A DNA stretch of 64,000 nucleotides from Lingula anatina. Its lineage: Eukaryota > Animalia > Brachiopoda. The stretch spans positions 27,224,401 to 27,288,400 of the forward strand of contig CM120641.1 of NCBI GenBank assembly GCA_051362555.1, given 5' to 3'. Under the pieces are notes generated by a model. It was not told the origin of the DNA and did no database searches. It worked only from the letters and a program-made list of their open reading frames with translations. Positions 1,017 through 50,928 of the stretch are shown piece after piece; the stretch's first letter is position 1, and every line of letters starts with the position of its first letter. The position numbers were made by a program, and so were the translations under genes.

Positions 1017-4000
1017 GAACCCAAACCTGCCTGCCCCTGTTCTAACACAGTGGCCCAAGTACGACCATGTTCAGCGCGAATACCTCGACCTCAATGAGAA
1101 CATCACTGCCAAATCCAATCTCAAAGCACGTCGAGTTGCCTTCATGACCGACGTGCTTCAAAAGCTGGTGGAACTTCCATCGGAGGGAGTTTGTACAGAA
1201 ACGGGCGATGCCATGGATGACTTGGTTGTGAATACTTTTTACGGCAAAATCAGAGGGAAGCGTGAGGTCGTAAAAGAATGGTACTGGGAAATGTTTCTTG
1301 GCGTTCCCTATGCAGCTCCCCCCATAGGAGAACACCGATTTCTCCCACCAATACCTCCAAAAATGTGGAGCGGCATCCGAAATGCAACGGAATTAGGATA
1401 TTCCTGTCATGGAGGAGCGGTTTTTCCCTCACCCTCTCCTTTAACGTTCCACGAAGATTGTCTCACACTTAATATATATGTGCCTGCAGGAGTGCGAATG
1501 TGGAAAGACGAAAAACTTGCTGTAATGTTATTTATACACGGAGGTGCCTATGTGGTTGGATCAAGTTCAGAGTACGACGGAAGAGCACTTAGCTGGTACG
1601 GACGCGTCATTGTTGTCACCATAAATTATCGCCTCGGAATCTTCGGTTTCGCAAGCACTGGGGACCAGAATGCTCCCGGAAACGTTGGTCTGATGGATCA
1701 GAGTCTTGCAATGCGGTGGGTAAAACAAAACATAGCCTCCTTTGGTGGTGACCCCGAAAGAATAACTATATTTGGAGAATCGGCAGGTGCTGGAAGTGTC
1801 ATATACCAAATGCTTTCACCTATGAGTAAAGGGTTGTTCAAGCGAGCCATAGCAGAAAGCACATGGCTGGGAGCTTGGGACTTACATTTCATCGACCCAG
1901 CAAAAAAGAATAACATAGATTTGATACGCGAGTATGGCATTCATTTCAACTGCAGTTCTTCACCAGTAGACATGATAAGGTGCCTTCGTGATATCAATGC
2001 TTCAGATATAGCTCAATATGCCTCTGCAAACATGTTTTCTCTGCCATTAAAACTATTCACTCCAACTGTTGATCGTGAATTCATGCCCTATTCGCCATCC
2101 GAAACGTTCGATTTGCTTTTAAAATACAAAGACATGATTAAAGAAGATGACATGGTTGACCTACTTATTGGCACAAACAGTGGAGAAGGTTTGTCAGAGT
2201 CTTTTGGCGCAATATTAACGACGTTTCCCAATGGCTCTCAGACGACCAATGGATTAACAGAGAAAGAGTTCGACCAAATCATGAAAGCATATGTTACGCC
2301 AAGCGTAGGCAATAATCTTGAAATAATTCTACCCATGATCCAGAACGCTTATACCAACTGGGAGTCGCCAGACAATCCAATGAGACGACTTCGTGCTTTT
2401 CAAGACGTTATAAGAGATATCACATATGTGGCCGGGTCAGATTTGGCAGCACAGGTGCATTCTACCTTAGGAGGCAACACGTACGTGTATAGGTTTGCAC
2501 ACGAACCCAGTTTTGGCCATTTATTCCTCGGGACATATGGGCTGCCTACTGAACCAATCTATGGTTTAGCTGACCATGGGGAAGAACTTACCTACGTGTT
2601 TGGTCAGCCTTTATTCACTGATGTTGTCCCTATGAATGTTTCCTCAAGAGACGTTGAAGTGTCAAGACAAATGATAGCTTACTGGTCAAACTTTGCCAGA
2701 TATGGGTAAGGCCTTACAATACCGGAAGAATAGATGATACCGAAATCGTAGTGGTATTTTAATTAATTAAAATAAAATTTCTATTAATATTTAACTGTGA
2801 AGATCCTAAATAAACCTTTGAGACAAATAGGCAGAAATAATAATTTCAAGTCGAGATATAGAAAAATATTTCAGAAGTTTTTGATGTGACAATGATTTGC
2901 TGCCATAGGCCTACTGCCATTAGTAAAACAGATTTCTTTAAATTTCTGTAGTCCATTGAAATTATTACCTTGTGTATTTTCAGTTCTCCCAATGGTCCTA
3001 CAGTTCCAGTCCATTGGCCTCAGTACGAAACATCCATGACGTCATACATGTACATCGGAAACGAGACCGAAGTAAAACAAAATCTGGGTGGTTCCCGAGT
3101 CCAGCTATTGAAAAACGTAGTGAGACGCCTCGCTGACTCTGGCAATTGTCCTGCAACGTCAAAAACTATGTACACACCAGCTCCCTCTAACGGTTCGTGG
3201 ATAATGCAGTATATCATGCCGGATCAGCCTGAGGTCAATACCCGTGTTGGGCGTGTGAGAGGACTTGCTCTGCGGGCCAGCGCTTTTACTGGTGGAAAAG
3301 ATTTAGACCTTTTCCTAGGTATTCCCTACGCTAAGCCACCAACAGGTGATCGCAGATTCAAAAAGCCAGAACCATCAACTGCTTGGACTGAAACCCTCAA
3401 TGCAACAATGAGCGCACCACCTTGCCTTCAACTCCCGTCAGATTTTATGATGGTGCTTGGTTTGAATCACACCAGTGAAGATTGTTTATATGTGTCGGTC
3501 GTCGTGCCTCGAGGAACCGTAGTAAATGATAAGAAGCCTGTTGTTGCCTTAATTCATGGTGGCTTCTTTATAAACGGCAGTCCAGATGAACATTCACTGG
3601 GAATTTTCTCTTCTTTGGGCGATGTCATTACTGTAAGCATTAATTATAGACTCGGTATGCTTGGATTTATGTCGACTGGAGATGACACTTTGAAAGGGAA
3701 CCTCGGACTCTATGACATGGTGGCTGCAACAAAATGGATAAAAGAGAACATTGCTTCTTTCGGTGGCAATCCAGACAAAATAACCCTTTTTGGTACTGGA
3801 TCTGCAGGACTGGCAGTACTTAATATGATGGTCTCCCCTATGGCAAAAGATTATTTCCATCAGGCTGTCATCACGGGCCCTACCACGCCTTACGCTGCAC
3901 AAACGCCGGCTGCATTAGCGGAAATAAGCAGGAATTTTTCTGCTGGTATTGGATGCCGACAGGAATCGAGCTCAGAGCTTATAGAATGTCTGAGAAGTAA

Positions 4001-6310: not shown

Positions 6311-7096
6311 ATGGCTCAGACTTGAGTGTTATTGTCCAAGGGGTCCATTTCACGCATTTGCCTCTCACCTTCTGCCACCTGTTCACATTACATCATATAT
6401 CATATATCATAAACTAAATATTGTGAGGGAGAAGAATGATAGATCTGAAAACTGTTTGAAAGATATTTGTTATTTTATGAGATGTATTTTTAATTCAATT
6501 CTCTTGAGTGTCGTTAAGGTAATGCACAAAAGCTCAGTTTAAGGTCCTCTTCACGGATATGTTTTTTTTTTCTGAGAAAAAGGGCAATTATTGCCTAACC
6601 ACGAATCATTGCCTGATCCGTCCATGCACTTGGATTCGAAATCTTACTCCATTTTTAATTTGACAATTGAGTTCTAGATGACTGACCAGTTATTAAGAGC
6701 GACATCTGTCTCAACGTGCATTACCTCGTTTTCACACAAGAAAATGGCGCGGTGTTTTGTATCTCATACAGCCGTTGCGAGTTGTCAATGACTGCCCGAG
6801 AATTCCAAGTAAATAATGCCGACACTAGGTTCCCTTCAGAAAAGAATTTAAAGGGTAATATCGCCCTCAAGGTCCAAATGGGGATATCTTGACATGACAC
6901 AAATATGCCCGTGGCGGATTACTTAACTGCGTAGACATCCTTTAAAGCAAATATTTACCACTAATATGTTACTGTTTGACAATAAGATTAAGAGATAGTT
7001 GTATTGAGGGTCAATTGTATAAGAAGACACAAAGTAGTTCTTCCGACATTTTGGTAAAGCTATCCCTAACGTTACCCAAACGGGTGTACCAGAAAT

Positions 7097-8505
7097 ATGT
7101 TCAATACTATAATCCCTGTGGTCTTCCTCTTTCAAGTTGCCTATTCACAGAGTGTTGTTCAAGTTCAGCAGGGCGATGTAATCGGCACAACAAAAACGAT
7201 TGGTAACACGACGGTGCATGCATACCTTGGGATACCCTATGCCGAGCCACCCCTAGGTGACCTACGGTTCAAGAAACCAGTACCTAAGGCTGCTTGGAGT
7301 TCCCCACTGAATGCCACCGAGTATGGACCGATATGCTTTCAAATGAACGCCATGTTTCCTAGCTCTGAGGACTGTCTGACACTTAATGTTCACGTACCAC
7401 AGGATAATAACACCGCCCCTAAAGCGGTCATGGTTTGGGTTCATGGCGGAGGGTTTGTCGTGGGCAGTGCCAGAGCAATGGATCCTGTAGGTCTAGCCCT
7501 GGCAGACGTTATCACAGTTAGTGTCAACTACCGTTTGGGCATGTTTGGCTTTCTTACTATCGTGGACGAGGTAAAAGGTAATTTCGGACTTTGGGACCAA
7601 CACCTCGCTTTCAGATGGATAAATAATAACATTGCTGCCTTCGGAGGGGACCCCAACAGAATCACGATATTCGGAGAATCTGCAGGCGGTATGAGCGTGT
7701 CTTTCCATGCTATGTCTCCAATGAGTAACGGACTGTTCCATCGTGTCATAAGCCAAAGCGGGGTTGGCAGTCAATATTTTGTCCTTCGACCGAGTCCCAC
7801 AATTATCACTTCTCTGAGCAAAACTTCGAATTGTAACACCACCGATTCGGCGGCTTTGCTATCTTGTCTTAAAGGTAAAAGTGCCCAAGATCTTCTTGCT
7901 GTCTCTAATACCTTTGAACAGTATTGGAGGCCAAACATGGATAACGAGTTTATAACTGGAAACGTTGAAAGCTCATCAAACCTTCTGCCAGAACAATATG
8001 GAAACCTTGATTTTTTGATGGGAAGTAATAGTCGTGATGGTACTGTCGGAATCGCGGTGCCTTCCGAAGCTGAAAATGGTTATACAGAGTCAACTTTCCG
8101 CAGATATGTCGACCGTATGTTAACTGGGAGATTGGACAAAGATATCATTGAAAGGGCGTTGATACAAGAGTACACTGCAGATGTCTGTAATCCAGATAAC
8201 AGAACGCGCGTACAGCAAAAAATAGAAATCTCTACGGACCTCTTTTTTACAGTCCCTACCGAGTTGAACGCTCTCAAACATGACAGAACCAACGGTACTG
8301 GTTCCACGTTCGTATATTTTCTCTCCATAAACACGTGCCACAAACTACCGCCCACGGTGTCTTGGCTTGATGGAGCTGGACATGCCGACGACCTAATCTA
8401 CATTAATGGTCTGGTTAGTGTTTTGTGCAACGGTAGCGCAACACCTGCTGATTTTGCCCTACAGACTGCTATGATAACTTATTGGACCAACTTTGCTAAA
8501 TCTGG
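7097..8505 (+). CDS. Carboxylesterase first exon A1 (signal peptide plus most of domain 1)
   Basis: ATG at 7097, signal peptide MFNTIIPVVFLFQVAYSQ, motifs HGGG, GESAG, GSNSRDG and GAGHADD. Ends ...NFAKSG with phase-2 donor GG|GTAAG at 8505/8506, compatible with the exon B2 acceptor at 18138. Confidence 0.85.
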
Positions 8506-9386
8506 GTAAGTTATTCAGTTAAGAATACGAGATTTTTACTGTGGTTTGAAGCAGGCTATTGACATCTGACATGGCAAAGGTAACACAGATATGTTAACAG
8601 GGGAATTTCATGCTTTGAGAGATAAATCATAGTTCCCTTTATAGCAAGTTAAGTTTCCATAAATGAATAAAGTTTTTCTAATCAATAGCGTTGAACACCC
8701 AAACCCAATATAGAGGTGCATTTCACAAGTTCAAGCCTCAAAAAATGAAATTGAATGAATTCGATGTATTATCCAATTTTTTAAAACTTGCATGTGTATA
8801 GAACAAAAATCTACAAATGTCCCAATTTTACGACCACGCGTTTCTGTTTTGTAAGCAAATAAATTGATAACCGTTTGAAGTAAAAAAGCATAAGAAAGAA
8901 CATACGTTAACACTAAATCGCCTGATACAAACACGATCATTAGTTGAGCGCTGTGGAAATTTGTGCAAGCTAAACACTATCAGAACCCTAAGAGTCATTA
9001 ATAATGGAAAAGTGATAGGAAAATACATTTAAATTGACCAGATCTAGGAAAATTACTTTCAAACTAAAGATCATTTTTCTTTACAATGTCCACGTTGATG
9101 ACTCTTTCAATAGCAGTAATTGTCAATTGTATAGAGAAATGAAAACTTTGTTACCTAAAAGTTATCTACCACTGGTCATATTCGTCGTGAATTTAAAACT
9201 CATTGACAGTTTCAAATTTTGGGTTTATTAGTTACAATACCAACTACGCCTCGCATCCTTCGCATTCCGTAATGTAACGTACGTTCCACAGCCATAGAAA
9301 AGATACGGGACACGAGTTCAATAAATATTGATAAGATATTTTTTTCGCTTTTTTTCGTAAAAAGACATCAAAAGTGATAACCTTGG

Positions 9387-9534
9387 GGGCTTCGTATCTC
9401 GAAAGGTTCGCTATGTTGCGCACGTGCGCAAGTGTCTCGATTCCATGGTCCCGTATGTCGAAATAGAATCGGTTATGGAATTGAGACGCTTTCGCACGTG
9501 CGCAACACAGCGAACCTTTCGAGATACGGAGCCC
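9387..9534. mobile_element. Foldback MITE with ~60-bp arms
   Basis: GGGCTTCGTATCTCGAAAGGTTCGCT...TTCCAT is the near-perfect inverse of ATGGAA...AGCGAACCTTTCGAGATACGGAGCCC. Confidence 0.8.
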
Positions 9535-9893
9535 AGGATTTTGTTAGGAAGGATGAGAAGCAAAATGATTTTAACGACGGAGGGCATTTTACTAAAACAC
9601 AATGGACACAGGCATAAAAGAATTCTTAGTTTTGCCTTGTTTTGCTCGTCATGTTTTCATTTGGAACATTATTTTAAAAAATATTTACCGAACAAGCTGA
9701 AGTGTAGCCTCAATTACTAAAAATATTTATTTGATATGGAAAATTTGCTTGAACCAGTCTTATTTTATTAACACTGTGAATGACACATTCTCCATCGTCA
9801 TCGTTGAATTACCATTATTATTACATCCCTAATCTTATTTAACAATCTTATTGTTTAGGCCTGGTTTAAGTTTGTTTAAGTAATGATAGCCAT

Positions 9894-10050
9894 CCCCGGC
9901 AGGCAAAGTCGCGTTGGATCAACGTTGCAAACAGGTTGATACGTTGAATTGCCGTTGTTCTACCTAAATTCAACCTAAAATCAACGTTGATCCAGCCACG
10001 TCGAAACACCGTCATAATGTGACGTTGACGCAACGTTGTAGTTTGGTCAT
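9894..10050. repeat. Repeat fragment with multiple (A)ACGTTG motifs, resembling DNA-transposon subterminal repeats
   Basis: CAACGTTG/CGTTG recurs many times within ~150 bp. The family is not assigned. Confidence 0.45.
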
Positions 10051-11223
10051 GGACACAACCTTGCAGACATGAATTGTAATTTAAAATATTAATTGTTGAA
10101 AACGTGATACTTTGTTTATCAATACTGTAACTAACTTTATCATAATTCTGACCATTGCTGATCTCCTCCGGTACCCTTTATTGACCGTACTTTATATAGT
10201 GTGATCACACTGTCAGTCTTCCTCATGTTGCACGCTGCAGTTAAATTGTCCTTGCGCCACTGCTAAATATTTTCTTCTATTCTGTTGTTTATATAAACCT
10301 TCTCATTTATTTTTGAATATTATAATCTCATTACCCATTGTGCGCTCTTAGAAACGGGGGATTTAGCAATATGCCTCATAACTATTACAGGACGCCCTTT
10401 TTTCTTATTGTTGTTAAAAAATGGACGTTAGTTTGTCGAGGTTTATTGCTTAGCTCTTAACGCGTTATATTTATGTGCATCTAAACGATATGTCAGTTTT
10501 TACTTGACTGATATTTCCCCTTGTCGCAAGTATGCTTTCTTACTACATGCGATCTAAAACAGGTCGTTTGTGTATCTAAAATCTGGCCGACAGGACGTAT
10601 CTCCACAGCAGCCGGACACACAGTAACTGTGAAGTCATGGTTTTAAAGCTTGTTTGAGAATGATAACAACCGCGTTTAACAATACATTGCGAGCTATAGT
10701 ACCCCCTCCTCTTTAAGCGTCGTACTATAATGTAAAGGCGACAAGTTATCAGATTGTCAGGCTTTTTCCCTGTCGCACATTGGTCTTCAATTATCATGTC
10801 CCCATTCTACCACATTAGTCTTACATGTAGTGTGTTATGAGAAGCGGAGGATTTCTAACACAGCAAAAGAAATGGGGGTGCGGGGGGGGGGGGGTACAAC
10901 ATCAAAAGGATTTTTAAAGGAATTGCCTAATAGGTTGATGTGTTATTTGAACCAAAACGATTTCCTGAAGATCAAATTAAAAATTAATATCTATTCCAAA
11001 AAAGGTGTATATTAAAATATCAATGAGTTTGCATTTAATGTTATCCCTCCTTAAGGGGCCATGTGCTGATTATAATGGCACACCTTGATGCTAAACAGTC
11101 TATCGTTTCTTCCACCTTGGGTCCCTTATATTCAAGTACCATATTGTATTACTCATATTCAGGCCTACCCACATACCAGACTCGGCACATAAGGATCCTG
11201 ACTTACCCGGTATATCGGACCAC

Positions 11224-11370
11224 ACTACCCGTTTTCAAGGTGTGTGTCAGATCGCATTTCGGAATATCATATCCCGAACAAAGTTTGTAGGACGACCGCA
11301 AGCTCATCCTGTCGGTGTTCTGACTGATACTCCGAAATGCGATCTGACATAAACCTTAAAAACGGGTAGT
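11224..11370. mobile_element. Foldback MITE
   Basis: ACTACCCGTTTTCAAGG...TGTCAGATCGCATTTCGGA is inverse to TCCGAAATGCGATCTGACA...CCTTAAAAACGGGTAGT. Confidence 0.8.
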
Positions 11371-11498
11371 CCTAAATTGCTATCAGCCGAGCTCGCACAG
11401 AAGTTAATTATCCCTTTACAGCTTTTAGTAGGCGGGACAGACATTTAAACAGCTAAGCTGACAGCAATCTAGTGAGACTCCCAACAGGGATAGATCGA
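11371..11498 (+). mobile_element. Partial (right-half) copy of the MITE family found at 52924-53360
   Basis: CCTAAATTGC...CAGCCGAGC...AGTTAATTA...TTACAGCTTTTAGTAGGCGGG...GCTAAGCTGACAG..ATCTAGTGAGACTCC matches 53208-53336. Confidence 0.8.
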
Positions 11499-11996
11499 AT
11501 CATTACCTGACCCGTCCGTGCACTTGGATTCGACGTCTTACTCCATTTTTAATTTAACATTTATTGATGACTGACCAGCCATAAAGAGCGGCGTGTGAGA
11601 AAATGGTGCGGTGTTTTGTATCGCAACTCTGCACCGTGTATCATGCAGCCGTTGCAAGTTGTCAATGACTGGCCGAGAATTACCCCAAGATAATGCCGAC
11701 ACAAAGTTCGCTTCAGAAAAGAATTTTAAGGGTATTATCGCCTTAAAGGTCCAAATGGGGATATCTTAACATGATACAAATATGCCCGTGGCGGATTATT
11801 TAACAGCGTAGACATCCTTTAAAACAAATATTTACTACTGATATGTTAATGTTTGACAATAAGATTAAGAAATAGTTGTATTGAGGGTCAATTGTATAAG
11901 AAGACACAAAGTAGTTCTCCCGACATTTTGGTAAAGTTATCCCTACCGTTACCCAAACGGGTATACCAGAAATATGTTCAATACTATTATAATCTC
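11497..11996 (+). promoter_or_regulatory. Duplicated upstream/putative promoter region of the A-type exon (copy of 6603-7115)
   Basis: Alignable from GAATCATT(G/A)CCTGA through ...CCAGAAATATGTTCAATACTAT in both places. Promoter function is inferred from position only. Confidence 0.7.
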
Positions 11997-14024
11997 CAGG
12001 GGCGGATTTAGGCCGTCTTCTGGGTCTTCCGGAAGACGGTCAAATTTTAAAGTTTACACTGACGGGTATCTAATATTTTCTGTCGGAAGACGGTCAAAAA
12101 TGGAGGATGGATGAACAAAAATAATTTGGAAGACTGTCAGAAAATATATTATCGGACCCGCAGGGTCAAGTACAATACCGGGTATTTTGCTTTATTTATT
12201 AACGTGATCAAACAATGGCCAGCTTTACCCGCGAAGAAGCTGGATTGTGCAATACTGACTTGTCATTCACTACGGTTCTCTCGTACCTTCATGTAAACAG
12301 AGGTGTGTTGACACTGCACTCTACCAGGCACGACGGGTTTTCTATACATTTAGATAAAGAACAGCAGTGGAGTGCAGTCGCACAACCCTGGCTTTTGTAC
12401 AAAATGATACCGTTCAGTGCATGTGTGTTGTTCTGTGTAATCCTCCATGCTGACACCTCCTTTGCTCAGAGAAGAGTCACTGTACAGCAAGGAGATATCA
12501 ATGGGAAAACATCAATTCTTGGATCGGACGTGATCTCCTATCTTGGGATACCCTACGCTGAACCTCCTTTGGGTGATCTACGATTCAAGAGACCAGTACC
12601 TAAGGCTGCTTGGAGTTCTCCACTGAATGCCACTGAGTATGGACCGATATGCCTGCAAATGAATGCCCGATTTCCCAGTTCCGAGGATTGTCTCACACTT
12701 AATGTTCATGTACCGCAGAATAATAACACCACCCCTAAAGCAGTCATGGTTTGGGTTCCTGGCGGAGGGTTTGTCTCGGGCAGCGCCAGAGCAATGGATC
12801 CTGTAGGTCTAGCCATGGCAGACGTCATCACAGTTAGTATCAACTACCGTTTGGGCATGTTTGGCTTTCTTACTATTGCGGACGATGTAAAAGGTAATTT
12901 CGGACTTTGGGACCAACACCTCGCTTTCAGATGGATAAAAGACAACATTGCTGCCTTTGGAGGGGACCCCAATAGAATCACGATATTCGGAGGATCTGCA
13001 GGCAGTATGAGCGTGTCGTTCCACGCTATGTCTCCAATGAGTAACGGACTGTTCCATCGTGTCATAAGCCAAAGTGGGATTGGCACTCAATATTCTGTCC
13101 TTCGACCTAATCCCACAATTGTCACTTCTGTGAGCAAAACTTCAAATTGTAACACCACCGATTCGGCGGCTTTGCTATCTTGTCTTAAAGGTAAAAGTGC
13201 ACAAGATCTTCTTGCTGCCTCTAATACCCTTGGACAGTTGCTTATTTGGAGGCCGTATGTGGATAACGAATTTATAACTGGAAACGTTGAAAGCTCATCA
13301 AATCTTCTACCAGAACAATATGGAAACCTTGATTATTTGATGGGAAGTAATAGTCGTGATGGTACTGTCGGAATCTTTGTGCCTTCCGAAGCCGAAAATG
13401 GTTATACAGAGTCAACTTTCCGCAAACATGTCGACCGTATGTTAACTGGGAGATTGGACAAAGATATCATTGAAACGGCGTTGATACAAGAGTACACTGC
13501 AGATGTCTTTAATCCAGATAACAGAACGCGCGTACAGCAAAAAATAGAAATCTCTACGGACCTCTTTTTCACAGTCCCTACCGAGTTGAACGCCATCAAA
13601 CATGACAGAACCAATGGTACTGGTTCTACGTTCGTATATTTTCTCTCCATAAACACGTGCAACAAAATTCTGCCCACGGTGTCTTGGCTGGATGGAGCTG
13701 GACATGTCGACGAACTAATTTACATCAATGGTCTGGTCAGTGTTTTGTGCAACGGTAGCGCCACACCTGCTGACCTAGCCCTACAGACTGCCATGATTAC
13801 CTATTGGACCAACTTTGCTAAATCTGGGTAAGTGATAAATACTTGTTCTAAATACATGGCATACGACAGGGGCGGATTTTGGCCGTGTTCTGGGAGACGA
13901 CCAGATTTTCAAGTTTACATTGACGGGTATGTAATTTTTTCTGACGAAATACGGTGAAAATGGTGGATGGATCAACAAAATTAATTTGGAAGACTGTCAG
14001 AAAATATCTCTGGATCCAGCCCTG
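11997..14024 (+). mobile_element. Composite, gene-carrying non-autonomous element: two direct MITE copies (11997-12147, 13867-14024) enclosing exon A2
   Basis: Starts CAGGGGCGGAT and ends ATCCAGCCCTG (imperfect TIR). Flanked by ATCTC at 11992-11996 and 14025-14029. Confidence 0.8.
12404..13827 (+). CDS. Carboxylesterase first exon A2 (different signal peptide), carried inside an insertion
   Basis: ATG at 12404, MIPFSACVLFCVILHADTSFAQ. Motifs PGGG, GGSAG, GSNSRDG and GAGHVDE. Phase-2 donor GG|GTAAG at 13827/13828. Confidence 0.8.
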
Positions 14025-17000
14025 ATCTCTGTGGTCTTCCTCTTTCAAGTTGCCTATTCACAGAGTGTTGTTCGAGTTCAGCAGGGCGATGTGATCGGCA
14101 CAACAAAAACGATTGGTAACACGACGGTGCATGCATACCTTGGGATACCCTTTGCCGAGCCACCCCTAGGTGACCTACGGTTCAAGAAACCAGTACCTAA
14201 GGCTGCTTGGAGTTCCCCACTGAATGCAACCGAGTATGGACCGATATGCCTGCAAATGAACGCCATGTTTCCTAGCTCTGAGGACTGTCTGACACTTAAT
14301 GTTCATGTACCGCAGAATAATATCACCGCCCTTAAAGCAGTCATGGTTTGGGTTCATGGCGGAGGGTTTGTCGTGAGCAGTAGTAGAGAAGAGGACCCTA
14401 TAGGTCTAGTCCTGGAAGACGTCATCAAAGTTAGTGTCAACTACCGTTTGGGCATGTTTGGCTTTCTTACTATTGGGGACGATGTAAAAGGTAATTTCGG
14501 ACTTTGGGACCAACACCTCGCTTTCAGATGGATAAAAGATAACATTGCTGCCTTCGGAGGGGACCCCAACAGAATCACGATATTCGGAGAATCTGCAGGC
14601 GGTATGAGCGTGTCTTTCCATGCTATGTCTCCAATGAGTGACGGACTGTTCCATCGTGTCATAAGCCAAAGCGGGGTTGGCAGTCAATATTTTGTCCTTC
14701 GACTAAGTCCCACAATTATCACTTCTCTGAGCAAAACTTCAAATTGTAACACCACCGATTCGGCGGCTTTGCTATCTTGTCTTAAAGGTAAAAGGGCCCA
14801 AGATCTTCTTGCTGCCTCTAATACCTTTGAACGGTTTTGGAGACCAAACATGGATAACGAGTTTATAACTGGAAACGTTGAAAGCTCATCAAACCTTCTG
14901 CCAGAACAATATGGAAACCTTGATTTTTTGATGGGAAGTAATAGTCGTGATGGTACTGTCGGAATCGCGGTGCCTTCCGAAGCTGAAAATGGTTATACAG
15001 AGTCAACTTTCCGGAAATATGTCGACCGTATGTTAACTGGGAGATTGGACAAAGATATCATTGAAAAGGCGTTGATACAAGAGTACACTGCAGATGTCTT
15101 TAATCCAGATAACAGAACGCGCGTACAGCAAAAAATAGAAATCTCTACGGACCTCTTTTTTACAGTCCCTACCGAGTTGAACGCTCTCAAACATGACAGA
15201 ACCAATGGTACTGGTTCTACGTTCGTATATTTTCTCTCCATAAACACTTGTCACAAACTACCGCCCACGGTGTCTTGGCTTGATGGAGCTGGACATGCCG
15301 ACGACCTAATCTACATTAATGGTCTGGTTAGTGTTTTGTGCAACGGTAGCGCCACACCTGCTGATTTTGCCCTACAGAATGCTATGATAACTTATTGGAC
15401 GAACTTTGCTAAATCTGGGTAAGTTATTCAGTTAAGAAAACGAGATTTTTACTGGGGTTTGCAGCAGGCTATGGGCATCTGACATGGAAAAAGTAACACT
15501 GATATGTTAACAGGTAAATTTCATGCTTTGAGAGATAAATCATAGTTCCCTTTATAGCAAGTTACGTTTCTTTAAATGAATAAAGTTATTCTAATCAATA
15601 GCGTTAAATCGTATAAAAGTACGGCTGGCTATCACATAAATGTATTTTTATACTTACTGTTATATTTACTCAGGTGATCTGTACATGATCACATTTTATT
15701 ACCTTATATTCTCTGCTTTTCACGAGAAACAGAATAAGCAATAAGTAATAGTGCTTTGTGTTTTATAATAATCATTACGACCTTAAATGTATTAAATACC
15801 TGTAATTTTAGTTTCTCAAACCTCACCCATCGATATTTTCATTATAATACTTACATATTTAAGGCCCGTAGTCATTTGCGATATTGTGATAATGTGTATA
15901 GAGCACTACCAGGTTTTAAAATTACAACTGTTTTGTACGGGGAAATAATCATTAAACACGATACCCACTTTCGCAATAAAAATTCGCCAATACTGTAGCG
16001 TCTGATTTTTCAAATTTTTTCGCTCACCATACGTTCATCCATGTATTTCTCCGTGTACATGTATCACCCATTCACTTCAAAGTAAACAGTGTATCATAGC
16101 GCAAATAAGGAAACGTATATGTATTTTCATGGGTATGGGCATCGTTAACTACAATGTAACCGTAAAAGAGAATGTAATATAGAATAAAAGATTCAAAACA
16201 GTTTTCATATGTCAGAAAGTAACGGGTCAAAGACTGGGGTTAAAAGCCAGTTTTAATCACTTATTATACACTTGGTTATAACCAAGGGAGCAATTCAATA
16301 GGTTTATATAAAAGCGCTATACTAGAGAATCAAAAACAAACTGACGGACAAAAGTAGGTGCCTGTACAATTAAGCAAATGATGGTTTCTGCATTGTTAGA
16401 AGTTTACACCCCCAACATGTACGCCCAGCTCTTGACCCCATCTGATCTTTTTGTTATATAATAATTATTAGCAGTCATTTTATCAGGTTCAAAAATATTG
16501 AGTAGACTTACAGTGTCGAGTTCCGATTATTAATCTGCACAGGTAACCTCCGTCCTAGATTTTCACCCTCTTTCGTCCCGCTACCTGTAACCCTAATCTA
16601 TGTGAATATTATGGTTGGCATAGTCTAAGTGACATTGGCCTTTGCTTTCTTAACACCGAGCATAATTTTAAAAATAAATTGTAGAGCTAGGTTCGACGAC
16701 GGCATGAACGAGGGCATTAACCGCGCAAACATAAAACAAATTCTAAAATAATGTTACATTAGCATTTAACCAATATATCCCTTATCCTATATTTTCCCAA
16801 AATGTATTATAAATGTATTACAAAAAAGAGCCATTTTATCAATGTTCCATGCTGTCAGAGGTTATGATGTACACTAAGTACAAACATACAAGCAAACCAT
16901 GCATACAAACTGGCAGCTCACCTGTAAATTACTTGGGCAATTTACATGCTCATTATGTTATTTACAATGCAAAGACACAAATGGGATGTGGCCTGGACCA

Positions 17001-17216
17001 TGTCCTGATTGGGATGTGGTCTGGACCACTTAGGAAGTGGACTAAATTGGGATCTGGCCTGTGATATACACGTTAGACAAGTGTTGTTTGTAGAGTTGAA
17101 TGATGTACTGAGACAGAATTTCTGAACACTGGCGATCCAGGATTTTGTTCAGAAGGATGAGAAGCAAAATGATTTTAAAAAATTAAACGACGGAGGGCAT
17201 TTTACTAAAACACAAA

Positions 17217-20200
17217 GGACACAGGCATGAAAGAATTCTTAGTTTTGCCTTGTTTTGCTCGTTATGTTTTCATTTGGTGTTGGGGGTGGGGGGTAGGTGC
17301 GTCAGTGGCTTCGATATACATTATAAATAATACGAAATATGTTTTGATAGTCAAATAATATCCAACAAAACATTTTATATGTTCATACCAGTATTTCTCG
17401 TAGGAACAACCACTGACATTAATGCATAAGGAATCTGTTGTGATACTACAAGAACATGATGATAACTATATATGTATAATACTGGTTGAGAACTTCATAA
17501 TATATTCTTATACCAATAAACTTGAAAATGGCGAAAAATTTAAGTTGCTTGTATTAACAATTTAACTCAGTTATTCATTACTTCTTTAACCATTATATCC
17601 CCGAACCAGAATGCGATTTTTGTCAGGGCAATTTGTCTTATAAGTGTTGAAAAAAATCAATTTCCCTACTATGCATACCATGCAATGATTGATAACATAC
17701 CTTTAGCATCTACATGTATTTTATTTCTTATGATTTCGCAAATAGATGTTCTCTTTTACATTCGTTTATCTAAATGAAGCACTGGCACTTTGTGTACTGA
17801 TTAACACTTTCAGCACTTACAGCAAAATAATACTACATCTTTCTTATCGTTTGCTACTGTTTTTTCTGCACTTCTAGAAATATATTGTCGTTTTGTCAAT
17901 GAAAAACTCAATAGATCAAATTTGCAGTGGTAAATACTTTTACTGTGGTGATATTTCCCCACAAAAACGCCCAAAATTTGAGAGAAAATTGCTTATGTTT
18001 CTAAGGATGTTTTAGTGCATTTTTGCGTCTGATAAGATGTCTGTAAGTACCAACATAATAACCATATATTTATTAAATGGATGTTTATTTGACACTTCGA
18101 AAAAGTTACTCAGTGTATGTATTTGACTTTTTTCCAGGAATCCAAACCAGCCTGCCCTCGTGGCAACACAGTGGCCCAAGTACGACCATGTTCAGCGCAA
18201 ATACCTCGACCTCAATGAGAACATCACTGCCAAATCCAATCTCAAAGCACGTCGAGTTGCCTTCATGACCGATGTGCTTCAAAAGCTGGTGGAGCTTCCA
18301 TCTGAGGAAGTGTGTACAGAAACGGGCGATGTCATGGATGACTTGGTTGTGGATACTTTCTACGGCAAAATCAGAGGGAAGCGTGAGGTCGTAAAAGAAT
18401 GGTACTGGGAAATGTTTCTTGGCGTTCCCTATGCAGCTCCCCCCATAGGAGAACACCGTTTTCTCCCACCAATACCTCCAAAAATGTGGAAAGGCATCCG
18501 AAATGTAACGGAGTTAGGATATTCCTGTCATGGAAGAGCGAATTTCACCTCACCCTCTCCTTTTAAGTTCCACGAAGATTGTCTCACACTTAATATTTAT
18601 GTGCCTGCAGGAGTGCGAATGTGGAAAGACGAAAAACTTGCTGTAATGTTATTTATACACGGAGGTGGCTATGTGGCTGGATCAAGTTCAGAGTACGACG
18701 GCAGAGCACTAAGCTGGTATGGACGAGTTATTGTTGTCACCATAAACTATCGCCTCGGAATCTTTGGTTTCGCAAGCACTGGGGACCAGAATGCTCCTGG
18801 TAACGTTGGTCTGATGGATCAGAGTCTTGCAATGCGGTGGGTAAAACAAAACATAGCCTCTTTTGGTGGTGACCCCGAAAGAATAACTATATTTGGAGAA
18901 TCGGCGGGTGCTGGAAGTGTCATATACCAAATGCTTTCACCTATGAGTAAAGGGTTGTTCAAGCGAGCCATAGCGGAAAGTACATGGATGGGAGCTTGGG
19001 ATTTACATTTCATCGACCCAGCAAAAAAGAATAACATAGATATGATACGGAAGTATGGCATTCATTTCAACTGCAGCTCTTCACCAGTAGACATAATAAG
19101 GTGCCTTCGTGACATCGATGCTTCAGATATAGCTCAATATGCCTCTAAAGACTTGTTTTCTTGGCCACTCAGATTATTCACTCCAACTGTTGATCGTGAA
19201 TTCATGCCCTATTCACCATCCCAAATGTTCGATTTGCTTTTAAATAACAAAAACTTGGTTGAAGATGATGACATGGTTGACTTACTCATTGGTACAAACA
19301 GTGGAGAAGGATTGAGTCAGTCTTTTGACTTGATATCAAAGATGTTTCCCAATGGTTCTCAACTGACCAATGGATTAACAGAGAAAGAGTTTGGCCAAAT
19401 CATGGAAGCATATGTTACCGAAAGCGTAGGCGACAATCTTAAAATAATTCTACCCATGATCCAGAACGCTTATACCAACTGGGAATCACCAGACAATCCA
19501 ATGAGTCGTGTTCGCACTCTTCAAGACTTAATAGGAGATATCTCATTTGTCGCCGGGTCAGATTTGGCTGCACATGTGCATTCTACTCTAGGTGGCAACA
19601 CGTACATGTATAGCTTTGCACACGAACCTAGTTTTGGCCATCCCTCCCTCAGGCTGCTTGGGCTGTCTACTGAACCAATTTATGGTTTGGCTGGCCACGG
19701 TGATGAACTTACCTTTGTGTTTGGTAAGCCTTTATTCACTGATGTTGTTCCTAGGAATTTTTCCTCAAGAGACGTTGAAGTGTCAAGACAAATGATAGCT
19801 TACTGGTCAAACTTTGCCAGATATGGGTAAGCGCTTACAATACCGGAAGAGTAGATTATACCTAAATAGTAGTGGTATTAATGAATTTTTTATGTTTAAT
19901 TGTGAAGACCTTAAATATACCTTCGAAACAAGTATGCAGAAATAATAATATAAAAAAATATTTTGTAAAGCTCTCAAATTATATATATGATGTGACTTTG
20001 ATTTGCTGCTATAATGTCATCAGTAAAACGGATTTTAAAAATATTTATGTACTTCATTTTCAGTTCTCCCAATGGCCCTACAGTTCCAGTCTTTTGGCCT
20101 CAGTACGAAACATCCATGACGTCATACATGTACATCGGAAACGAGACTGAAGTAAAACAAAATCTGGGTGGTTCCCGAGTCCAACTATTGAAAAACGTAG

Positions 20201-22425
20201 TGAGACGCCTCGCTGACTCTGGCAATTGTCCTGCAATGTCAAAAACAATGTACACACCAGCTCCCTCTAACGGTTCGTGGATAATGCAGTATATCATGCC
20301 GGATCAGCCTGAGGTCAACACCCGTGTTGGGCGTGTGAGAGGACTTGCTCTACGGGCCAGCGCTTTTACTAGTGGAAAAGATTTAAACCTTTTCCTAGGT
20401 ATTCCCTACGCTAAGCCACCAACAGGTGATCGCAGATTCAAAAAGCCAGAACCAACAACTGCTTGGACTGAAACCCTCAATGCAACAATGAGCGCACCGC
20501 CTTGCCTTCAACTCCCGTCAGATTTCATGATGGTGCTTGGTTTGAATCGCACCAGTGAAGATTGTTTATATGTGTCCGTAGTCGTGCCTCGAGGAACCGT
20601 AGTAAATGATAAGAAGCCTGTTGTTGCCTTAATTCATGGTGGCTTCTTTATAAACGGCAGTCCAGATGAACATTCACTGGGAATTTTCTCTTCTTTGGGC
20701 GATGTCATTACTGTAAGCATTAATTATAGACTCGGTATGCTTGGATTTATGTCGACTGGAGATGACACTTTGAAAGGGAACCTCGGACTCTATGACATGG
20801 TGGCTGCAACAAAATGGATAAAAGAGAACATTGCTTCTTTCGGTGGCAATCCAGACAAAATAACCCTTTTTGGTACTGGATCTGCAGGACTGGCAGTACT
20901 TAATATGATGGTCTCCCCTATGGCAAAAGATTATTTCCATCAGGCTGTCATCACGGGCCCTACCACGCCTTACGCTGCACAAACGCCGGCTGCATTAGCG
21001 GAAATAAGCAGGAATTTTTCTGCTGGTATTGGATGCCGACAGGAATCAAGCTCAGAGCTTATAGAATGTCTGAGAAGTAAACCAGCCGATGCATTCATAT
21101 ACAAGGGAAATCCTTACCTGGCAAACCACGTATTCCTTGTCACTGATGGAGAACTAATAAAAAGTGATCTTGTAACAGCGTATACTACCAGTACTCAACT
21201 GAAGCCTCTTGTGATTGGAAGTACGTCAGACTATGCTGGTATTTTCCTTCAACAATATCTTGGTTACAGAGATTCTATGACCCAGCAAGAAGTCGACGCT
21301 TCTATTGATATGACAATTGAAGCAGTTTTTCCCAAATCAGGAATGAAGGACCTTTTGAAAGCCATGATTAAACAGCAGTTTTTTTCATCAGAAATCAAAA
21401 ATGATAAAGATAGACTGATGGCTCTCTTACACTTCTATAACAGCATGCACAAGTATGGCTGGTTGTATATGCTTGGTGTAGGGCACGCATCCCATGGTGG
21501 AGACGTGTATATGTACGAATTTAATCATCGTCCACAGTGGTCATGGTACCCCGAATGGATTGGCGCCACCTTCCGAGACGACATCGGGTTTTTGGAAGGC
21601 TTACCGTTCGACAAACCACTTCTGGCTGAATTATCGTTGTCAGTCACAGACCGAGACGAAATGATCAGTGGGGCACTCATGTCGTATATCGGAAACTTTG
21701 TTGGAACAAGGTAGGTTGACTGGGCTCCATAGTCACAAAATCAATAGTTTCTTGTATGATACATGTAGTTGGATTCGATTTTAGATGATAGCAGTAGATC
21801 AAAACCTGTATACTGAGTTAAAGAATTTTGGTCGTATTGTGCGTTTTTCAAATTTCCCTTTATTACAAACAAACATCGAATTTAACTTGATCATCATTGT
21901 AATTTACGGATAGTATTTTATCAACAATCCTTACTCCCTTTTGTAGTAATCCAAACCAAGGCAATTTCCCAGTGTCCGTGGAATGGCCAAAGTTTGAGGA
22001 AGATGTTCCTAACTACCTCATGGCAGGTCTACGATTCATGGCAGCAGACATGAGAGACATGATGGGCCAAGAACAAATACGTTTCTGGCATGGTGAAGGA
22101 AAAAATAATTCCATACTGGATCAAGTTGCTACTATGAAGATGGATGCCCAAACAATGAGTACTCCGGCACCCACTACGCCCCCTGCAGCAACATGCCCAC
22201 CCGCGTTGGGGAGCTCTGATTTCCTGAATTCAATGAACCTTGATGTCAAAGGAGTAGACGATCTTGTCTTGGCACTCATTGTTATAGCTTCTGCGTTGGG
22301 TCTTTTCCTCATAATTGCAGTAGGGTATGTGTGCGTACTAAACGGCAGGATTGGGAAGCTTAAACAAGCTGCTTTATCCACTTCAAGGATTGAGCTAACT
22401 AAGATGTGAAATGAAAATTGAAAAA
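17217..22425 (+). repeat. Tandem segmental duplicate of ~26-5345
   Basis: Upstream intron, exons B/C/D and the two short introns are colinear with an offset of ~17.1 kb. Homology ends just after the stop codon. Confidence 0.95.
18138..22409 (+). CDS. Multi-domain carboxylesterase membrane protein, copy 2, downstream exons B2, C2, D2
   Basis: Exons 18138-19826 (1689 nt), 20064-21710 (1647 nt) and 21947-22409 (463 nt), the same lengths and phases as copy 1. With A1 the total is 5208 nt, or 1735 aa. Confidence 0.9.
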
Positions 22426-23107: not shown

Positions 23108-24839
23108 CTCTCTCGGTAGGCCCGGTTGAGGGTAGTAGAAATTGCCGTTATGAATTACATGTACACTCGACTAACAGATTTAATAAAGGATACTGAGGTA
23201 CTTTACCTCTCTGTGCTGCCTGTGTTAGATAATAGTGCGAAATGTAAATGCTCCCAATTTGTTTAAAACATGATGAAAAAGAACTTAATGTAGTATTTTC
23301 TTAATGTATCATTTTCCTTATCATTATATAAAAGATGATCAACTCATTCTTATAACCAAGAAATAAGAAACAGCACATTTATATTCGTAGTGTAATATTT
23401 ATACGACTTTTTTACCTTGGAGTAATCATATAAGTGGCAATATATCCCTCTTGTGATCACTATTTAGGTAGTGTACAAGGACATCTATACATATAATCAA
23501 CTTTTTGTGTCAGGAGAACGGGGTGAACCATATGAATGTGCATTCAACACAATAATAATATCTGTCCATCTCTGCATTTTGAAATTAAAGGCTCAGAAAT
23601 ATTGATTGATATTAGGAAATAAAGTGATCAAACTTGCATTTTTGCATAGATTTGAATTTAGTGATGCGCCTAAGTGAGTGAGCGTTTGTGTGCGTCTGAG
23701 GGGGGATCGGGAAGTTTATTGTTTGACTTGTCAGTGTGCTTTAAGGATCATATTTCACAAAACCAGATATAAGTGACTATAAAAAGCCGATTGATTTGAT
23801 GTGATCAAAGATCAACGCGCTAGAATCCAATTGAATGCAATTCGCACCTCGGTTCATTGCTCTAATGTCAGCTGGATTGTCGTCATTGTCGTTTATATTT
23901 GAAGCAAACGATTAAACGTAATTGATATAAATTCCCCAGAAAGAAGATTTGTTCTTTTTGACACAGACAATTACAACAATTATGAATTATATAACATGAA
24001 ATCATATGAATAAATATAATATTTTATATATTACCCCTTTAGATTCTACTGATATTGATATTAATATTTAGTACTAAGTAGATTAATACTAAGTAGATTT
24101 GTACATATGTTATTATTCAATTTTTGATCTTGAAAGTATTTTGATCTTTTACCAGCTTGCTTAATCAATTTCCAAACTTTATACATGTATTTATCCCGAA
24201 CTATGTCCCTAAGTAGCTATTTAGGTCTAATGATGATTTACGGAAATTGTTTTGTGTATAAACTACGAAACGAGAACAGAATTTAAAAAAAACATGCCCT
24301 TTCCATCCACTTAAACAAAAAAAGGCGAGCAATAGGCTAAGCTACTAAAAAGTAACCTTTTAAACAAATTAAAAACTGGCTGCAAACACCTGATGATCAC
24401 CCTTTATTGTATTATCCTTCTTTGGTTGCATTAACCATTACACTTGAGAGAGGGTTCTTTTTGCGTCCACCGCTCTCAAATTACCTTCAATGTGATGCCT
24501 TGATGTTGTGCACTACGGCAGCCAGCAGACGGACGTTCAAAACCGAACCGTTGTGAATATCCAGACTGAAGATACGACGCATAATCACGGAACATTACAG
24601 CACCTTTTGTTACATAAACAAGCTCGCTCAGAATCCATCGCGTTTTGCCACATCTATCCAATCTTGATAGATTCGCTTTCAATTCACAGCAGAGGCAGAT
24701 AAATCTATTTTAATATCTCTCTGGGACCTCCGTAAGCTTTTCTATTGATTCAGTCGGGGCGCCGTGCTCACTGAAAGCCGTTGCAGTTCATTTACTCGCA
24801 GTCGTTGACGGATTGCACCAGTATCCCTCCCCGTTAACC

Positions 24840-27800
24840 ATGAAGTGCAACGAGAGAGCTATGACGTTACTGGCACTGGTCTTCGGGACCGTAGCCACCA
24901 CTGGACTTTTCCTGGCTCTTACCACCACATACTGGCTCTACACGACAGAGAGACCGGAACAACTTTCATCGTCGGCGGCCAAGGAGAAGAAGAACACCAC
25001 AAGGGAAGAGGGGAATGTCACGTATGCCCATCTTGGTCTGTGGAGAGTGTGTTTATATTCCAAACAAGGTAATGAAGAGATGTAATTGTTATAAATGCAG
25101 TGGGAAAAGAGTTAGTACTCTCATAGTTGGATTAATAGAGTCTGCGTTAACTTGATCTAGCGGGCACTACATGTTTGATGTTACGGATCAACATGCAATG
25201 TTGACACAATTTATTTCCAAGGTTTTAATCAAAACCTTAACTTCAATAAGGATCCATTAACCCTGTTACAATTTTAGGTGTTGTTATTGCTAATGTTATG
25301 ATATAATACAATAAAAACCTTGCCATGACCCTTTCGCCTCTGTTGCTGCTAATGACTGTGTAGAGATAGACCCTGACATATTAATTACACAAAGTGCATC
25401 AATGGTTGAGTCTTTAAACTTCCCCCGGATGGGATCACACCTACAGTGCAGCTAATGAATTGCCTAGATGATCCTAGTTTCAAAGTATGCGGTTTTGTTT
25501 TTTATGATGTATATTTATCCCAAACCCTACCTTTATGCTAGTTTAATGACTGAAAAAATTAAAGATATGTATACAGCGATAAGACGCAGGCGTCATCATT
25601 TTGCTTCAAGCGTAATGTTATTGGCTAATAGGGGATAAAATACATTTATTACAAAATAGGCACATTTTTTATCAGTGTATTGAAAACTTGACCCCCTCTT
25701 CCATTGCATTTTATCAGTATCTGATAAAATGAAAGCTGTCACTTAATCATACGCATCTTGCTGTATTCAGATGATTTGAGCAAAAAACGTAGCTTAAGGG
25801 GACTTGCTAAGAATTTTCAGATATTTTCGTATGACATTTCATGAACTGCCGGTGGTCAGATTCCTGTTCAAAATATGTAACTCCTTTTGCAAATGGGGAA
25901 AGATGTTATGGTTCAAACAGAAAACTGCTTAATATTCCTAGACTATGCTATTCAAAAACACCCCTTTGGATAAATGCACAACACTTAAACTGCCCTAAAC
26001 GTGACAGAAAATGCTATTTCCGTAGTTACTCGATTAATTATGCATCATCGAAAATATCGCTCTTTTCACCGAATTTCGTCTGGTAAAAAAAAAGAAATGG
26101 GTTTGCTTGTAGTTAAGAATCTCATTAAATTTGTTGGATAATAATTAATTGCAGAAAAATGGAAAAAACAATATTAAGATATCCGTCTTATTTAAATGAG
26201 TCAGTAGCATGCATGTTGACAAATTTTAAGGGTAGGTTACCATTCAGAAAAGAAGCGACGGAGGTTGGAATGTCCATTAACTTCTGCTATCTGCCCTTGT
26301 GAGTAACGTGGTTGAAAAAAAAAAGAATATTTCTCTCAGCTCACCGAACGCCTTTGGTGTGAAATAAAAGCCACATAAATATAAGTTTTAAAAGTACTTC
26401 CAATCAAACAATGCCTTAAGACCCAAAAGATACGGTGTCGCTTCAATGTAATTGTCAATAAAACCCTCCCATTTGGTCAGTAAAATTCAGTAAAATTAAT
26501 TCGTGCTAAACTTAGATTCCCAGAGAATTTGAATCGACCGTGTCTAGGTAAATAACTATTTCAACACAATACGACGTGCACTTTAGACAAGCATTATGAA
26601 GAAATGCCAAAGATGATGTGCTGAAAATACATTTACAACGACGTCTATTTCTGAGTCAAAAAAGTACATGTACTTTAAAGAATTGATAAGATAACAGCAA
26701 CGTAAAATGCAGTCTATATCTAGTAGATGCCAGTAAATCGCATAAGTGCGATAGATCCCCAGGGTCAATCCCGGCAATTTCCATCGATAAATCGCCTTTG
26801 GAGGAAAGGACTTGGCGACGACGATTGAAACTGTTTCTCATGATTGTTTGGAATCGAAAACATTGCCCTTCTAATGTCGCTGTCAATTATGGGTGTAGAC
26901 TGAAGGGATAGAAGAAGCACTACATTGAGCTGTAACCGATTTATTCCCAGCGACTGGAATTCATTCATACCTAATTTACACTGTAAAGTGAACCCTGGCC
27001 GTAAAAATACAGTAGATGAAACCAGAGTGACGATCCTGTACGGGTGTGTTAGTATTCGTCCCTTGGTATATCTACTTACAAGAGCAAATAAATTTAAAAT
27101 TTAAAATTTTAAATTTTTCTATCGATTCCCACGTTTTTAATTTAGCTTTTAGTTGCTGAGTATATTAAAACACAGCCAATGTTATGGCTATCATTGATTG
27201 TGACAGTAATGCACGTGTTATCACCAAGCCCGCTTCGACTACCACAAATATGTACATGGAATGGCCATATTTCTGTGAGGCAATACCATAAAAGTGACAT
27301 TATATTTAAATGGGTCAGATGATGGGCAGTCGTGATCGCCGATGTTCGATAAAATATTTATCTGTTGAACGATTTCACATTATTTTCTAATAAAGAGTGC
27401 ACTGCTGTTTAAATTTTCATTACAGGATTTATAAAGGCGGCCTTTCGAATTTAAGAATGCGTATATACTTCGCAGAGAATCTACCGTTTCGGCTTTCCTA
27501 ACACGTGCTTTCAAGATAAATTTGCGACAACAGGGGCATCTCACAACAGGAACCTTATATTCAGCTATGTGCAGTGTCTTGAGTAGCTATGAAACATACA
27601 TCCCCTAAAGGCCAAGTGAAAGTCAACAAATTCCGTTTATAGACGTCAAATGTTTCGACTTGATTTGACATAAGCCCGTCGAGTGAAACCCGACTGTGCA
27701 TTCTATTGGAATTCAACTGTGGTAAAAAGGGTGACAAAAAATTGACCTACATGTACCAGCTCCCCTTCAGCCGTAGGTTTTAGTGAAAGTAGTACAATTT

Positions 27801-45981: not shown

Positions 45982-46019
<38 letters not shown>

Positions 46020-47161: not shown

Positions 47162-47199
<38 letters not shown>

Positions 47200-50884: not shown

Positions 50885-50928
<44 letters not shown>

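Follow-up and report, generated by a model that had tools for sequence, protein, structure and literature searches.

A predicted membrane-anchored chain of two active carboxylesterase domains and one dead domain in Lingula anatina, from a candidate ancient bilaterian family

The subject of this report is a carboxylesterase gene of the brachiopod Lingula anatina. It lies in a stretch of 64,000 nucleotides of animal DNA with introns, below called the window (GCA_051362555.1, contig CM120641.1, positions 27,224,401-27,288,400); all coordinates are those of the window. The gene is predicted to encode a type-I membrane protein with three carboxylesterase domains in tandem, two with an intact catalytic triad and a third, next to the membrane, in which the triad is lost. 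This bare architecture, a membrane-anchored chain of two predicted active esterase domains and one dead domain, is very probably correct. The domains come from a well-known family and the protein is already in RefSeq, without a function; the layout may be that of an ancient bilaterian family.

The gene and its protein

The esterase open reading frames at 7097-22409 (+) are exons; their donors are GT, their acceptors AG, and every junction is in phase 2. Three A-type exons (A1 at 7097, A2 at 12404, A3 at 11974/14025) precede a single set of exons B2, C2 and D2. When 7097-8505, 18138-19826, 20064-21710 and 21947-22409 (A1+B2+C2+D2) are joined by script, an open frame of 1735 amino acids (aa) results, the length that the original prediction, made from the letters alone, had announced. 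The protein starts with a signal peptide, which is followed by three COesterase domains, a Thr/Pro stalk, a transmembrane (TM) segment and a tail of 22 aa. The triads are Ser-Asp-His in domain A, Ser-Glu-His in domain B, and Gly-Tyr-Phe at the corresponding positions of domain C. The predicted protein carries 20 N-glycosylation sequons. The exons of this chain are:

7097-8505 (+): exon A1, a candidate first exon; opens with an ATG and a signal-peptide-like segment, encodes all but the last ~50 residues of domain A (Ser-Asp-His) and closes with a phase-2 GT donor
18138-19826 (+): exon B2; completes domain A at its C-terminus and continues with a linker and esterase domain B (Ser-Glu-His); 99.3% identical to RefSeq model P0122
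20064-21710 (+): exon C2; completes domain B and continues with a linker and pseudo-esterase domain C, which has Gly-Tyr-Phe in place of the triad
21947-22409 (+): exon D2; completes domain C, followed by the Thr/Pro stalk, a TM helix predicted at ~22263-22340 and a 22-aa tail ending T-K-M

The COesterase profile of Pfam (PF00135) matches exons A1, A2, A3, B2 and C2 with 356-432 bits, far above the cut-off of 27, over profile positions 2-471 of 515. The part of each domain that is missing there is supplied by the beginning of the following exon. Only alpha/beta-hydrolase families were found in the esterase exons, and RefSeq P0122 contains three COesterase stretches. All motifs by which the domains had been recognised are located where the original prediction placed them, i.e., GESAG (7673), GSNSRDG (8021) and GAGHADD (8372) in domain A, GESAG (18895) and GTNSGEG (19291) in domain B, and FGTGSAG (20869), GSTSDYA (21217) and GATFRDD (21562) in domain C. 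The four junctions it named (2705/2984, 4630/4852, 19826/20064 and 21710/21947) are GT/AG and in phase 2. Its view of a cell-surface tandem hydrolase, one spliced type-I membrane protein in which two domains have an intact triad and a third is dead, is thus supported. The single gene over 7097-22409 fared less uniformly: the exons do belong to one gene, yet three A-type exons are located there and the proposed model skipped two of them.

Two of the four junctions belong to an upstream tandem copy, the A exon of which would fall outside the window:

1017-2705 (+): exon B1; 98.2% identical to RefSeq models P0001/P0121
2984-4630 (+): exon C1; 98.7% amino-acid identity to C2
4852-5314 (+): exon D1; identified by splice sites and RefSeq match

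A search with exon C among long proteins retrieved a 1740-aa Lingula anatina RefSeq model at 99% identity. The Lingula cluster comprises three RefSeq models of 1736-1740 aa, all termed 'uncharacterized': P0001 and P0121, two isoforms of one gene which differ in domain A only, and P0122. P0122 consists of an uninterrupted A3 joined to B2-C2-D2, and in P0121 (the X2 model) a first domain 99.6% identical to A2 of the window is joined to B1. Because the exons of the window are 97-99.6% identical to these models, the window appears to be another allele of the same gene pair. The pairing of A1 with B2 in the original prediction gives an open frame, whereas the RefSeq allele joins A3 to B2. The amino-acid differences between B1 and B2 are concentrated in the second half of the domain, with a non-synonymous rate (dN) of 0.10-0.13 compared with 0.004 around the nucleophile; the ratio to the synonymous rate (dN/dS) is below 1. 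To judge from sequence, this suggests a pattern as expected if the substrate pockets diverge.

Transcript evidence

Nine raw RNA runs were taken by species label and seven of them were aligned, four at 97% and four at 88% likeness. At 88% the joints which the original prediction regarded as decisive for B-C-D are present. The B-C joint 19826/20064 is spanned by 29 reads (2+8+1+18) and the C-D joint 21710/21947 by 39 reads (6+15+4+14), each in 4/4 runs and with GT..AG ends. In run X6 the sense-strand depth ranges from 7 to 22 in the bins of B, C and D, with 5.3 in the final bin, and is close to zero along most of the long intron. Over the A-type exons of the same run the two A2 bins reach 21.6 and 9.9, compared with 0.3-4.0 for A1 and A3 (A1 0.3-3.1), a depth for A2 which may include reads of a paralogue outside the window.

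Several observations weigh against this reading of the RNA. At 97% likeness the four runs show almost no exon depth and no splice joints, and the A-to-B joint is absent among the best 15 of 74 joints at 88%. Reads aligned at 88% cannot be assigned to this copy; those of the upstream copy or of other alleles align as well, and therefore what the joints prove is a B-C-D chain in the pair of genes rather than in this copy by itself. The A-B join is deduced from other features. The A exons stop ~50 residues short of the domain end and the completing piece is present only at the start of B1 and B2; B lacks both a start and a signal peptide, and A is joined to B in the RefSeq models. For the upstream copy the predicted X1 and X2 models join a first exon to B. 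Joints at ~12.0-13.9 kb were rejected as splicing: they are reads of other repeat copies, with non-GT/AG ends and extra letters between.

The same layout in other animals

The best 120 of at least 346 long database matches were split into domains with a custom profile; they are relatives of each other, so the rows are not independent. A protein was counted as TM-anchored when a TM-like segment follows the last domain with at least 15 residues behind it. Among these 120 proteins, a last domain without the catalytic Ser is present in 16/21 matches with a TM segment compared with 14/99 without. The 16, counted as seven species, are from Lingula (1), Styela (3, four domains), catshark (1), Glandiceps (2), Saccoglossus (1), Patiria (4), Acanthaster (3) and Asterias (1). 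The architecture is thus not unique to Lingula. The remaining five TM-anchored matches comprise three arthropod models, Lineus P0100 and a Ptychodera protein which retains the Ser but has lost the His. Relatives from sea urchin and sevengill shark are also among the matches listed, and a bony-vertebrate member with a dead domain plus TM is not among them. Profile searches for relatives are crowded by fused models and by vertebrate neuroligin-4.

The family proteins share a signal peptide, one or more active domains, a dead last domain, a TM segment and a short tail, often ending in [ST]-x-hydrophobic. The number of domains varies: two each in Saccoglossus P0037, Glandiceps P0023 and P0024, Asterias P0047, Patiria and Acanthaster, and four in Styela P0006. 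Catshark P0155 has three, exactly in the order active-active-dead-TM of the Lingula protein. The identity to Lingula is ~27-36% per domain, and the proteins carry automatic annotations without a named function. The [ST]-x-hydrophobic end (PDZ-type) is present in 11/20 family proteins and 11/100 others. It may be a PDZ-binding, apical-targeting motif. In an AlphaFold model of the two-domain Glandiceps P0024 (2/42 alignment rows were insect proteins) both domains fold, with a mean predicted local distance difference test (pLDDT) value of 84.6; the predicted template-modelling score (pTM) of 0.57 and a linker below 50 make it uninformative on packing.

The segments between the domains are signal-peptide-like at 1/30 junctions of the family and at 57/120 in other long matches; for this reason the family models are unlikely to be fused neighbours. 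By contrast, many long matches with internal signal-like segments, including Lineus P0100, are probably fused neighbouring genes and were rejected as evidence for a dead-domain family. In most linkers of the tandem dead-domain proteins a Cys is located shortly after the last helix of the domain, e.g., at the start of exons B2 and C2; this Cys may take part in a disulfide.

Proteins with a single domain and a TM segment were also observed. They are dead in Lingula (P0418, P0422) and active in hemichordates and starfish, with the juxtamembrane motif of the family (P0412, P0440 and P0497 in the same set). Possibly, such single-domain relatives are the building blocks of the tandem proteins. Mytilus (P0017, P0132, P0135) and Pagrus (P0003, P0128-P0130) possess 3-5 near-identical, all-active esterase repeats with short linkers, which are either separate young tandem expansions or fused models.

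Ancestry of the dead domain

On a profile built from 14 deuterostome dead domains, domain C reaches 372 bits, compared with 314 bits for the active domains of the same proteins and 269 bits for 8 neuroligins; A and B prefer the active-domain profile. In a 29-row IQ-TREE tree, a subset of 52 rows from which the triad and oxyanion motif columns were removed, C groups with the hemichordate dead domains (support 99/94) and these group with the echinoderm dead domains (95/85). A quick tree of all 52 rows under the C20 mixture model agrees, with Shimodaira-Hasegawa-like approximate likelihood-ratio (SH-aLRT) values of 94 and 96 and with C and the neuroligins in separate clades. The approximately unbiased (AU) test rejects a grouping of C with four neuroligin rows (p=0.014), of the three Lingula domains together (0.027) and of B with C (0.042). 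Thus, to the extent that long branches can be trusted, C likely shares its ancestry with the hemichordate and echinoderm dead domains.

A number of points speak against a single origin of the layout. C is a long branch (1.5-1.6), and its identity of 34% to a hemichordate dead domain is barely above the 32% to neuroligin-4. The groups for the AU test were named after the trees had been seen, and its p-values are modest. A profile of the deuterostome juxtamembrane region finds exon D at E ~2 only, compared with 2e-4 for another Lingula protein, P0418. The shark dead domain joins at 45/17 only (0.967 in FastTree only) and the Styela dead domain falls outside the C clade, so the layout may have arisen more than once. 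Orthology of a dead domain to C is supported for hemichordates and echinoderms only.

Taken further, this leads to a convergent scheme, in which tandem fusions arose independently, the membrane-proximal domain decayed each time and the grouping of C reflects long-branch attraction. The positions of Styela and shark are what such a scheme predicts, long branches are common to all dead domains, young all-active repeats occur in models from Mytilus, Pagrus and Branchiostoma, and single-domain esterases carry the same juxtamembrane motif. Yet the grouping of C survives both the removal of the catalytic-motif columns and the C20 mixture model, an origin within Lingula alone is rejected (AU 0.027) and the reciprocal profile score favours the dead set. 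On balance we consider convergence unlikely. Shared ancestry of the dead domains is the reading retained below.

Domain C is a maintained pseudo-esterase

The replacements of Ser by Gly, Glu by Tyr and His by Phe, initially read from an ungapped motif comparison, hold in HMMER alignments to solved neuroligins and in the profile alignment. The FGTGSAG of C aligns without gaps to FGSGAGG of neuroligins, i.e., Gly replaces the catalytic Ser in both. Solved neuroligins keep the Glu and the His (GVNQGEG, AAHGDE), whereas C has Tyr and Phe. The accessible text of a neuroligin study lists H291, Y292, D384 and E394 as residues of the neurexin Site I (PMC5563082). At these positions, placed on the HMMER alignment by spacing, C has P, M, S and T, i.e., 0/4 are kept. 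The placement allows for a neuroligin splice insert, the length of which we take to be 9 residues.

The AlphaFold model of C displays an intact alpha/beta-hydrolase fold (pLDDT 92.9). Its best structural matches are neuroligins at a template-modelling score (TM-score) of 0.91, with CES2 at 0.86-0.89. Among solved structures the active domain B also matches neuroligins best (E 4.5e-83), and the best relatives of domain A are Ces2, a cholinesterase and bile-salt-activated lipase. C1 and C2 differ by 17 synonymous and 8 non-synonymous substitutions, a dN/dS of 0.14; the value is 0.39 for B and 0.30-0.47 for pairs of A exons. By this measure C is a maintained domain under purifying selection and no decaying relic. 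A counterweight is the low synonymous divergence in C (dS 0.045) vs an intron mismatch of 13-16%; it suggests conversion between the copies and therefore weakens the dN/dS contrast. A prediction of a B-C complex, run without alignments, gave no verdict, at scores of 0.18 and 0.19.

The original prediction had called C neuroligin-like and considered an enzyme/adhesion hybrid, in which C would be a neuroligin-type ligand-binding module for cell contact or signaling with two esterases on top. Indeed, the best solved relatives of C by sequence and by predicted fold (TM-score 0.91) are neuroligins, Gly occupies the nucleophile position, the protein is a type-I TM protein with a PDZ-type end, and C is the most conserved domain between the copies. 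The resemblance to neuroligins is not peculiar to C: the active B matches neuroligins best as well and CES2 structures are nearly as good by fold. Furthermore, C has lost Glu and His together with all four Site I residues, the AU test speaks against C plus neuroligins (p=0.014), and C is positioned close to the membrane, beneath two other domains. A special kinship with neuroligins is thus unsupported, and the hybrid, which therefore lacks specific support, is improbable, though C might bind a ligand other than neurexin. As a side observation, several family members carry automatic names such as 'neuroligin-like'; the trees disagree for the dead domains tested.

Candidate alternative first exons and an insertion

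The original prediction missed a probable choice of first exons as well as an insertion of 2028 bp in A3. A1 and A2 each possess their own ATG, a hydrophobic signal-peptide-like start and a phase-2 donor. The region upstream of A3 is a copy of that of A1, 11496-11990 matching 6602-7113 at 84%. The features of this region are:

11974-11996 (+): 5' stub of exon A3; ATG plus 7 codons, severed by the insertion; in P0122 the same stub forms the beginning and runs directly into the A3 body
11997-14024 (+): insertion, 2028 bp, inside the signal-peptide coding region of A3
11997-12147 (strand not assigned): left copy of a repeat resembling a miniature inverted-repeat transposable element (MITE); truncated, without right end; 82.8% identical to the right copy
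12404-13827 (+): exon A2, a candidate first exon carried by the insertion; has its own ATG and a signal-peptide-like start, then an esterase domain (GGSAG, PGGG, Asp, His), and ends at a phase-2 donor
13867-14024 (strand not assigned): right MITE-like copy; complete, 158 bp
14025-15418 (+): exon A3 body; Ser-Asp-His, no in-frame start in this haplotype; 98.9% identical to P0122

The insertion is flanked by a 5-bp direct repeat (11992-11996, 14025-14029), a target duplication, and its outer ends are inverted repeats (9/11 match). Reads with loose ends of mixed sequence pile up deeply on the MITE-like repeat, which argues that it is widespread; the consensus of the loose ends shows the same end in other copies. 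RefSeq P0122 reads through the site and represents the empty allele. Since P0122 has an intact A3 and P0121 carries a near-identical A2 on B1, A3 of this haplotype appears to have received a copy of A2. The copy apparently arrived by composite (Pack-type) transposition or by recombination between repeat copies; both give the same sequence. We infer that the repeat-flanked A2 has knocked out A3 in this haplotype and would replace it. The locus would thus catch exon shuffling in the act: a whole enzyme exon, placed between two small repeats, inserted into its paralogue. Two other outcomes were tried and rejected: a splice from A2 to A3 (14020), which would yield a four-domain protein, is out of frame, and removal of the insertion by splicing fails as there is no GT at its start.

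A2 is a mosaic which resembles the first domain of P0001 over residues 1-120 and A1 over residues 200-400. It carries Pro for His before the oxyanion glycines (PGGG; A1 and B2 have HGGG) and Gly for Glu before the catalytic Ser (GGSAG), and because of these replacements its activity may differ from that of A1 and A3. No private terminal exon for any A was found in the window; the end piece of domain A is present only in B1 and B2. As judged from the exon structure, alternative first exons spliced to constant exons B-C-D are the simplest reading. That the A1/A2/A3 stretch is instead an assembly artefact or dead duplication debris with one real A exon and no choice is doubtful: it would account for the lack of an A-B joint among the best 15 of 74, for the low depth of A1 and A3, for A2 being paired in RefSeq with B1, which sits upstream of A2 in the window, and for an insertion known from the assembly only, but it has to contend with a clean 5-bp target duplication and inverted ends, with A exons that are 6-16% apart in protein at a dN/dS <0.5 and free of stops, and with two first-domain isoforms of one gene in RefSeq itself.

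Other features in the window

Downstream of the esterase gene three further genes were noticed. Exons of a claudin-family gene are located at 24714-33435 (+), the first of which matches Pfam Claudin_2 below the cut-off (E 1.6e-5); the gene resembles that of a calcium-channel gamma subunit. At 45028-54482 (+) there is a collagen IV-like gene with Gly-X-Y exons and a C4 domain (Pfam Collagen, C4). A Shisa-like gene occupies 57377-58695 (-), with a Shisa_N match at 58414-58695 and an exon at 57377-58120 with a TM-like segment and a long tail. Another dispersed repeat, the second abundant one, is located at 11302-11498 and 53058-53343, where loose-ended RNA reads accumulate in large numbers; other repeats are present at 8.7-10.1 kb.

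A proposed function

On the balance of the evidence we favour, with some reserve, an ecto-esterase whose first domain can be exchanged and whose pseudo-esterase is structural, with a layout resembling that of carboxypeptidase D. In this proposal one of several interchangeable first exons would supply the predicted active domain A and exon B a second one. The type-I membrane protein would pass through the secretory pathway and display A and B as serine hydrolases outside the cell or in a lumen, where they may hydrolyse different ester or lipid substrates. Domain C would serve as a structural base by the membrane, on its Thr/Pro stalk, as spacer, folding aid or dimer base; this role is suggested by analogy with the cholinesterase-like (ChE-like) domain of thyroglobulin and domain III of carboxypeptidase D. 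The T-K-M end may act as a PDZ-type signal that directs the protein to the apical side of an epithelium, probably one for digestion or detoxification, and the hydrolysis of dietary or xenobiotic esters at such a surface is our best guess at the role. An exchange of first exons would vary the outermost active site, i.e., the substrate range, whereas C and the anchor would stay fixed.

In a broader sense, the gene is likely a member of an ancient family of ester-cleaving enzymes of the cell surface that has so far been overlooked. More tentatively, with the odds slightly against it, one may envisage an undescribed family of multi-domain ecto-esterases which predates the protostome-deuterostome split and combines one conserved pseudo-esterase with an anchor in brachiopods, hemichordates, echinoderms, tunicates and sharks, an alpha/beta-hydrolase counterpart of carboxypeptidase D. 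The Lingula member would then be a cassette enzyme with swapped first exons, gene conversion and a transposon-flanked exon that differs between individuals. Animal carboxyl- and cholinesterases are usually regarded as proteins of one domain which serve either as enzymes or as dead adhesion modules; an active-plus-dead membrane tandem conserved in protostomes and in deuterostomes, sharks among them, would add a third design.

Comparison with known systems

A literature search over listings and the openings of abstracts, with subscription literature outside its range, retrieved no description of tandem active-plus-dead membrane carboxylesterases, and the accessible part of PMC7641594 contains nothing on tandem domains. 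Domains A and B share the fold and the triad motifs of type-B carboxylesterases (PF00135; CES1/2, bile-salt-activated lipase, AChE). The solved and classical members of PF00135 have one domain per chain, as is true for all PDB matches, whereas the Lingula protein has three in tandem, a TM segment and a dead third domain.

The arrangement of the A exons is reminiscent of variable-first-exon loci such as the clustered protocadherins and UGT1A. In both, several large first exons, each equipped with a start, a signal peptide and a donor of the same phase, precede constant exons which they share. The differences are that Lingula has only 2-3 variable exons, that the variable exon is a whole catalytic domain and that its use is known from models, not from reads.

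Neuroligins and the ChE-like domain of thyroglobulin resemble C in being non-catalytic esterase domains, with Gly at the nucleophile and a single TM segment after the dead domain. In its accessible text, PMC5943944 lists neuroligins, other cholinesterase-like adhesion molecules and the ChE-like domain of thyroglobulin as non-catalytic members, the last as an intramolecular chaperone and dimer module. Unlike C, neuroligins keep the Glu and the His as well as the neurexin site. They possess one esterase-like domain per chain, whereas C shares its chain with two active domains, and the neuroligin-4 tail has ~120 aa compared with 22 aa in Lingula.

The closest parallel in layout is carboxypeptidase D. 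According to the part of PMC11266112 available to us, it consists of a signal peptide, three tandem enzyme domains of which the first two are active, a TM segment and a cytosolic tail; in the third domain nearly all active-site residues are replaced, and yet it is needed for full viability of Drosophila. As an M14 zinc peptidase, carboxypeptidase D is unrelated in fold and chemistry, and the Lingula protein contains no M14 domains. The analogy is one of layout only. As such, the active-plus-dead esterase tandem would be the second independent case, after carboxypeptidase D, in which the purpose of a membrane-proximal pseudoenzyme domain can be studied.

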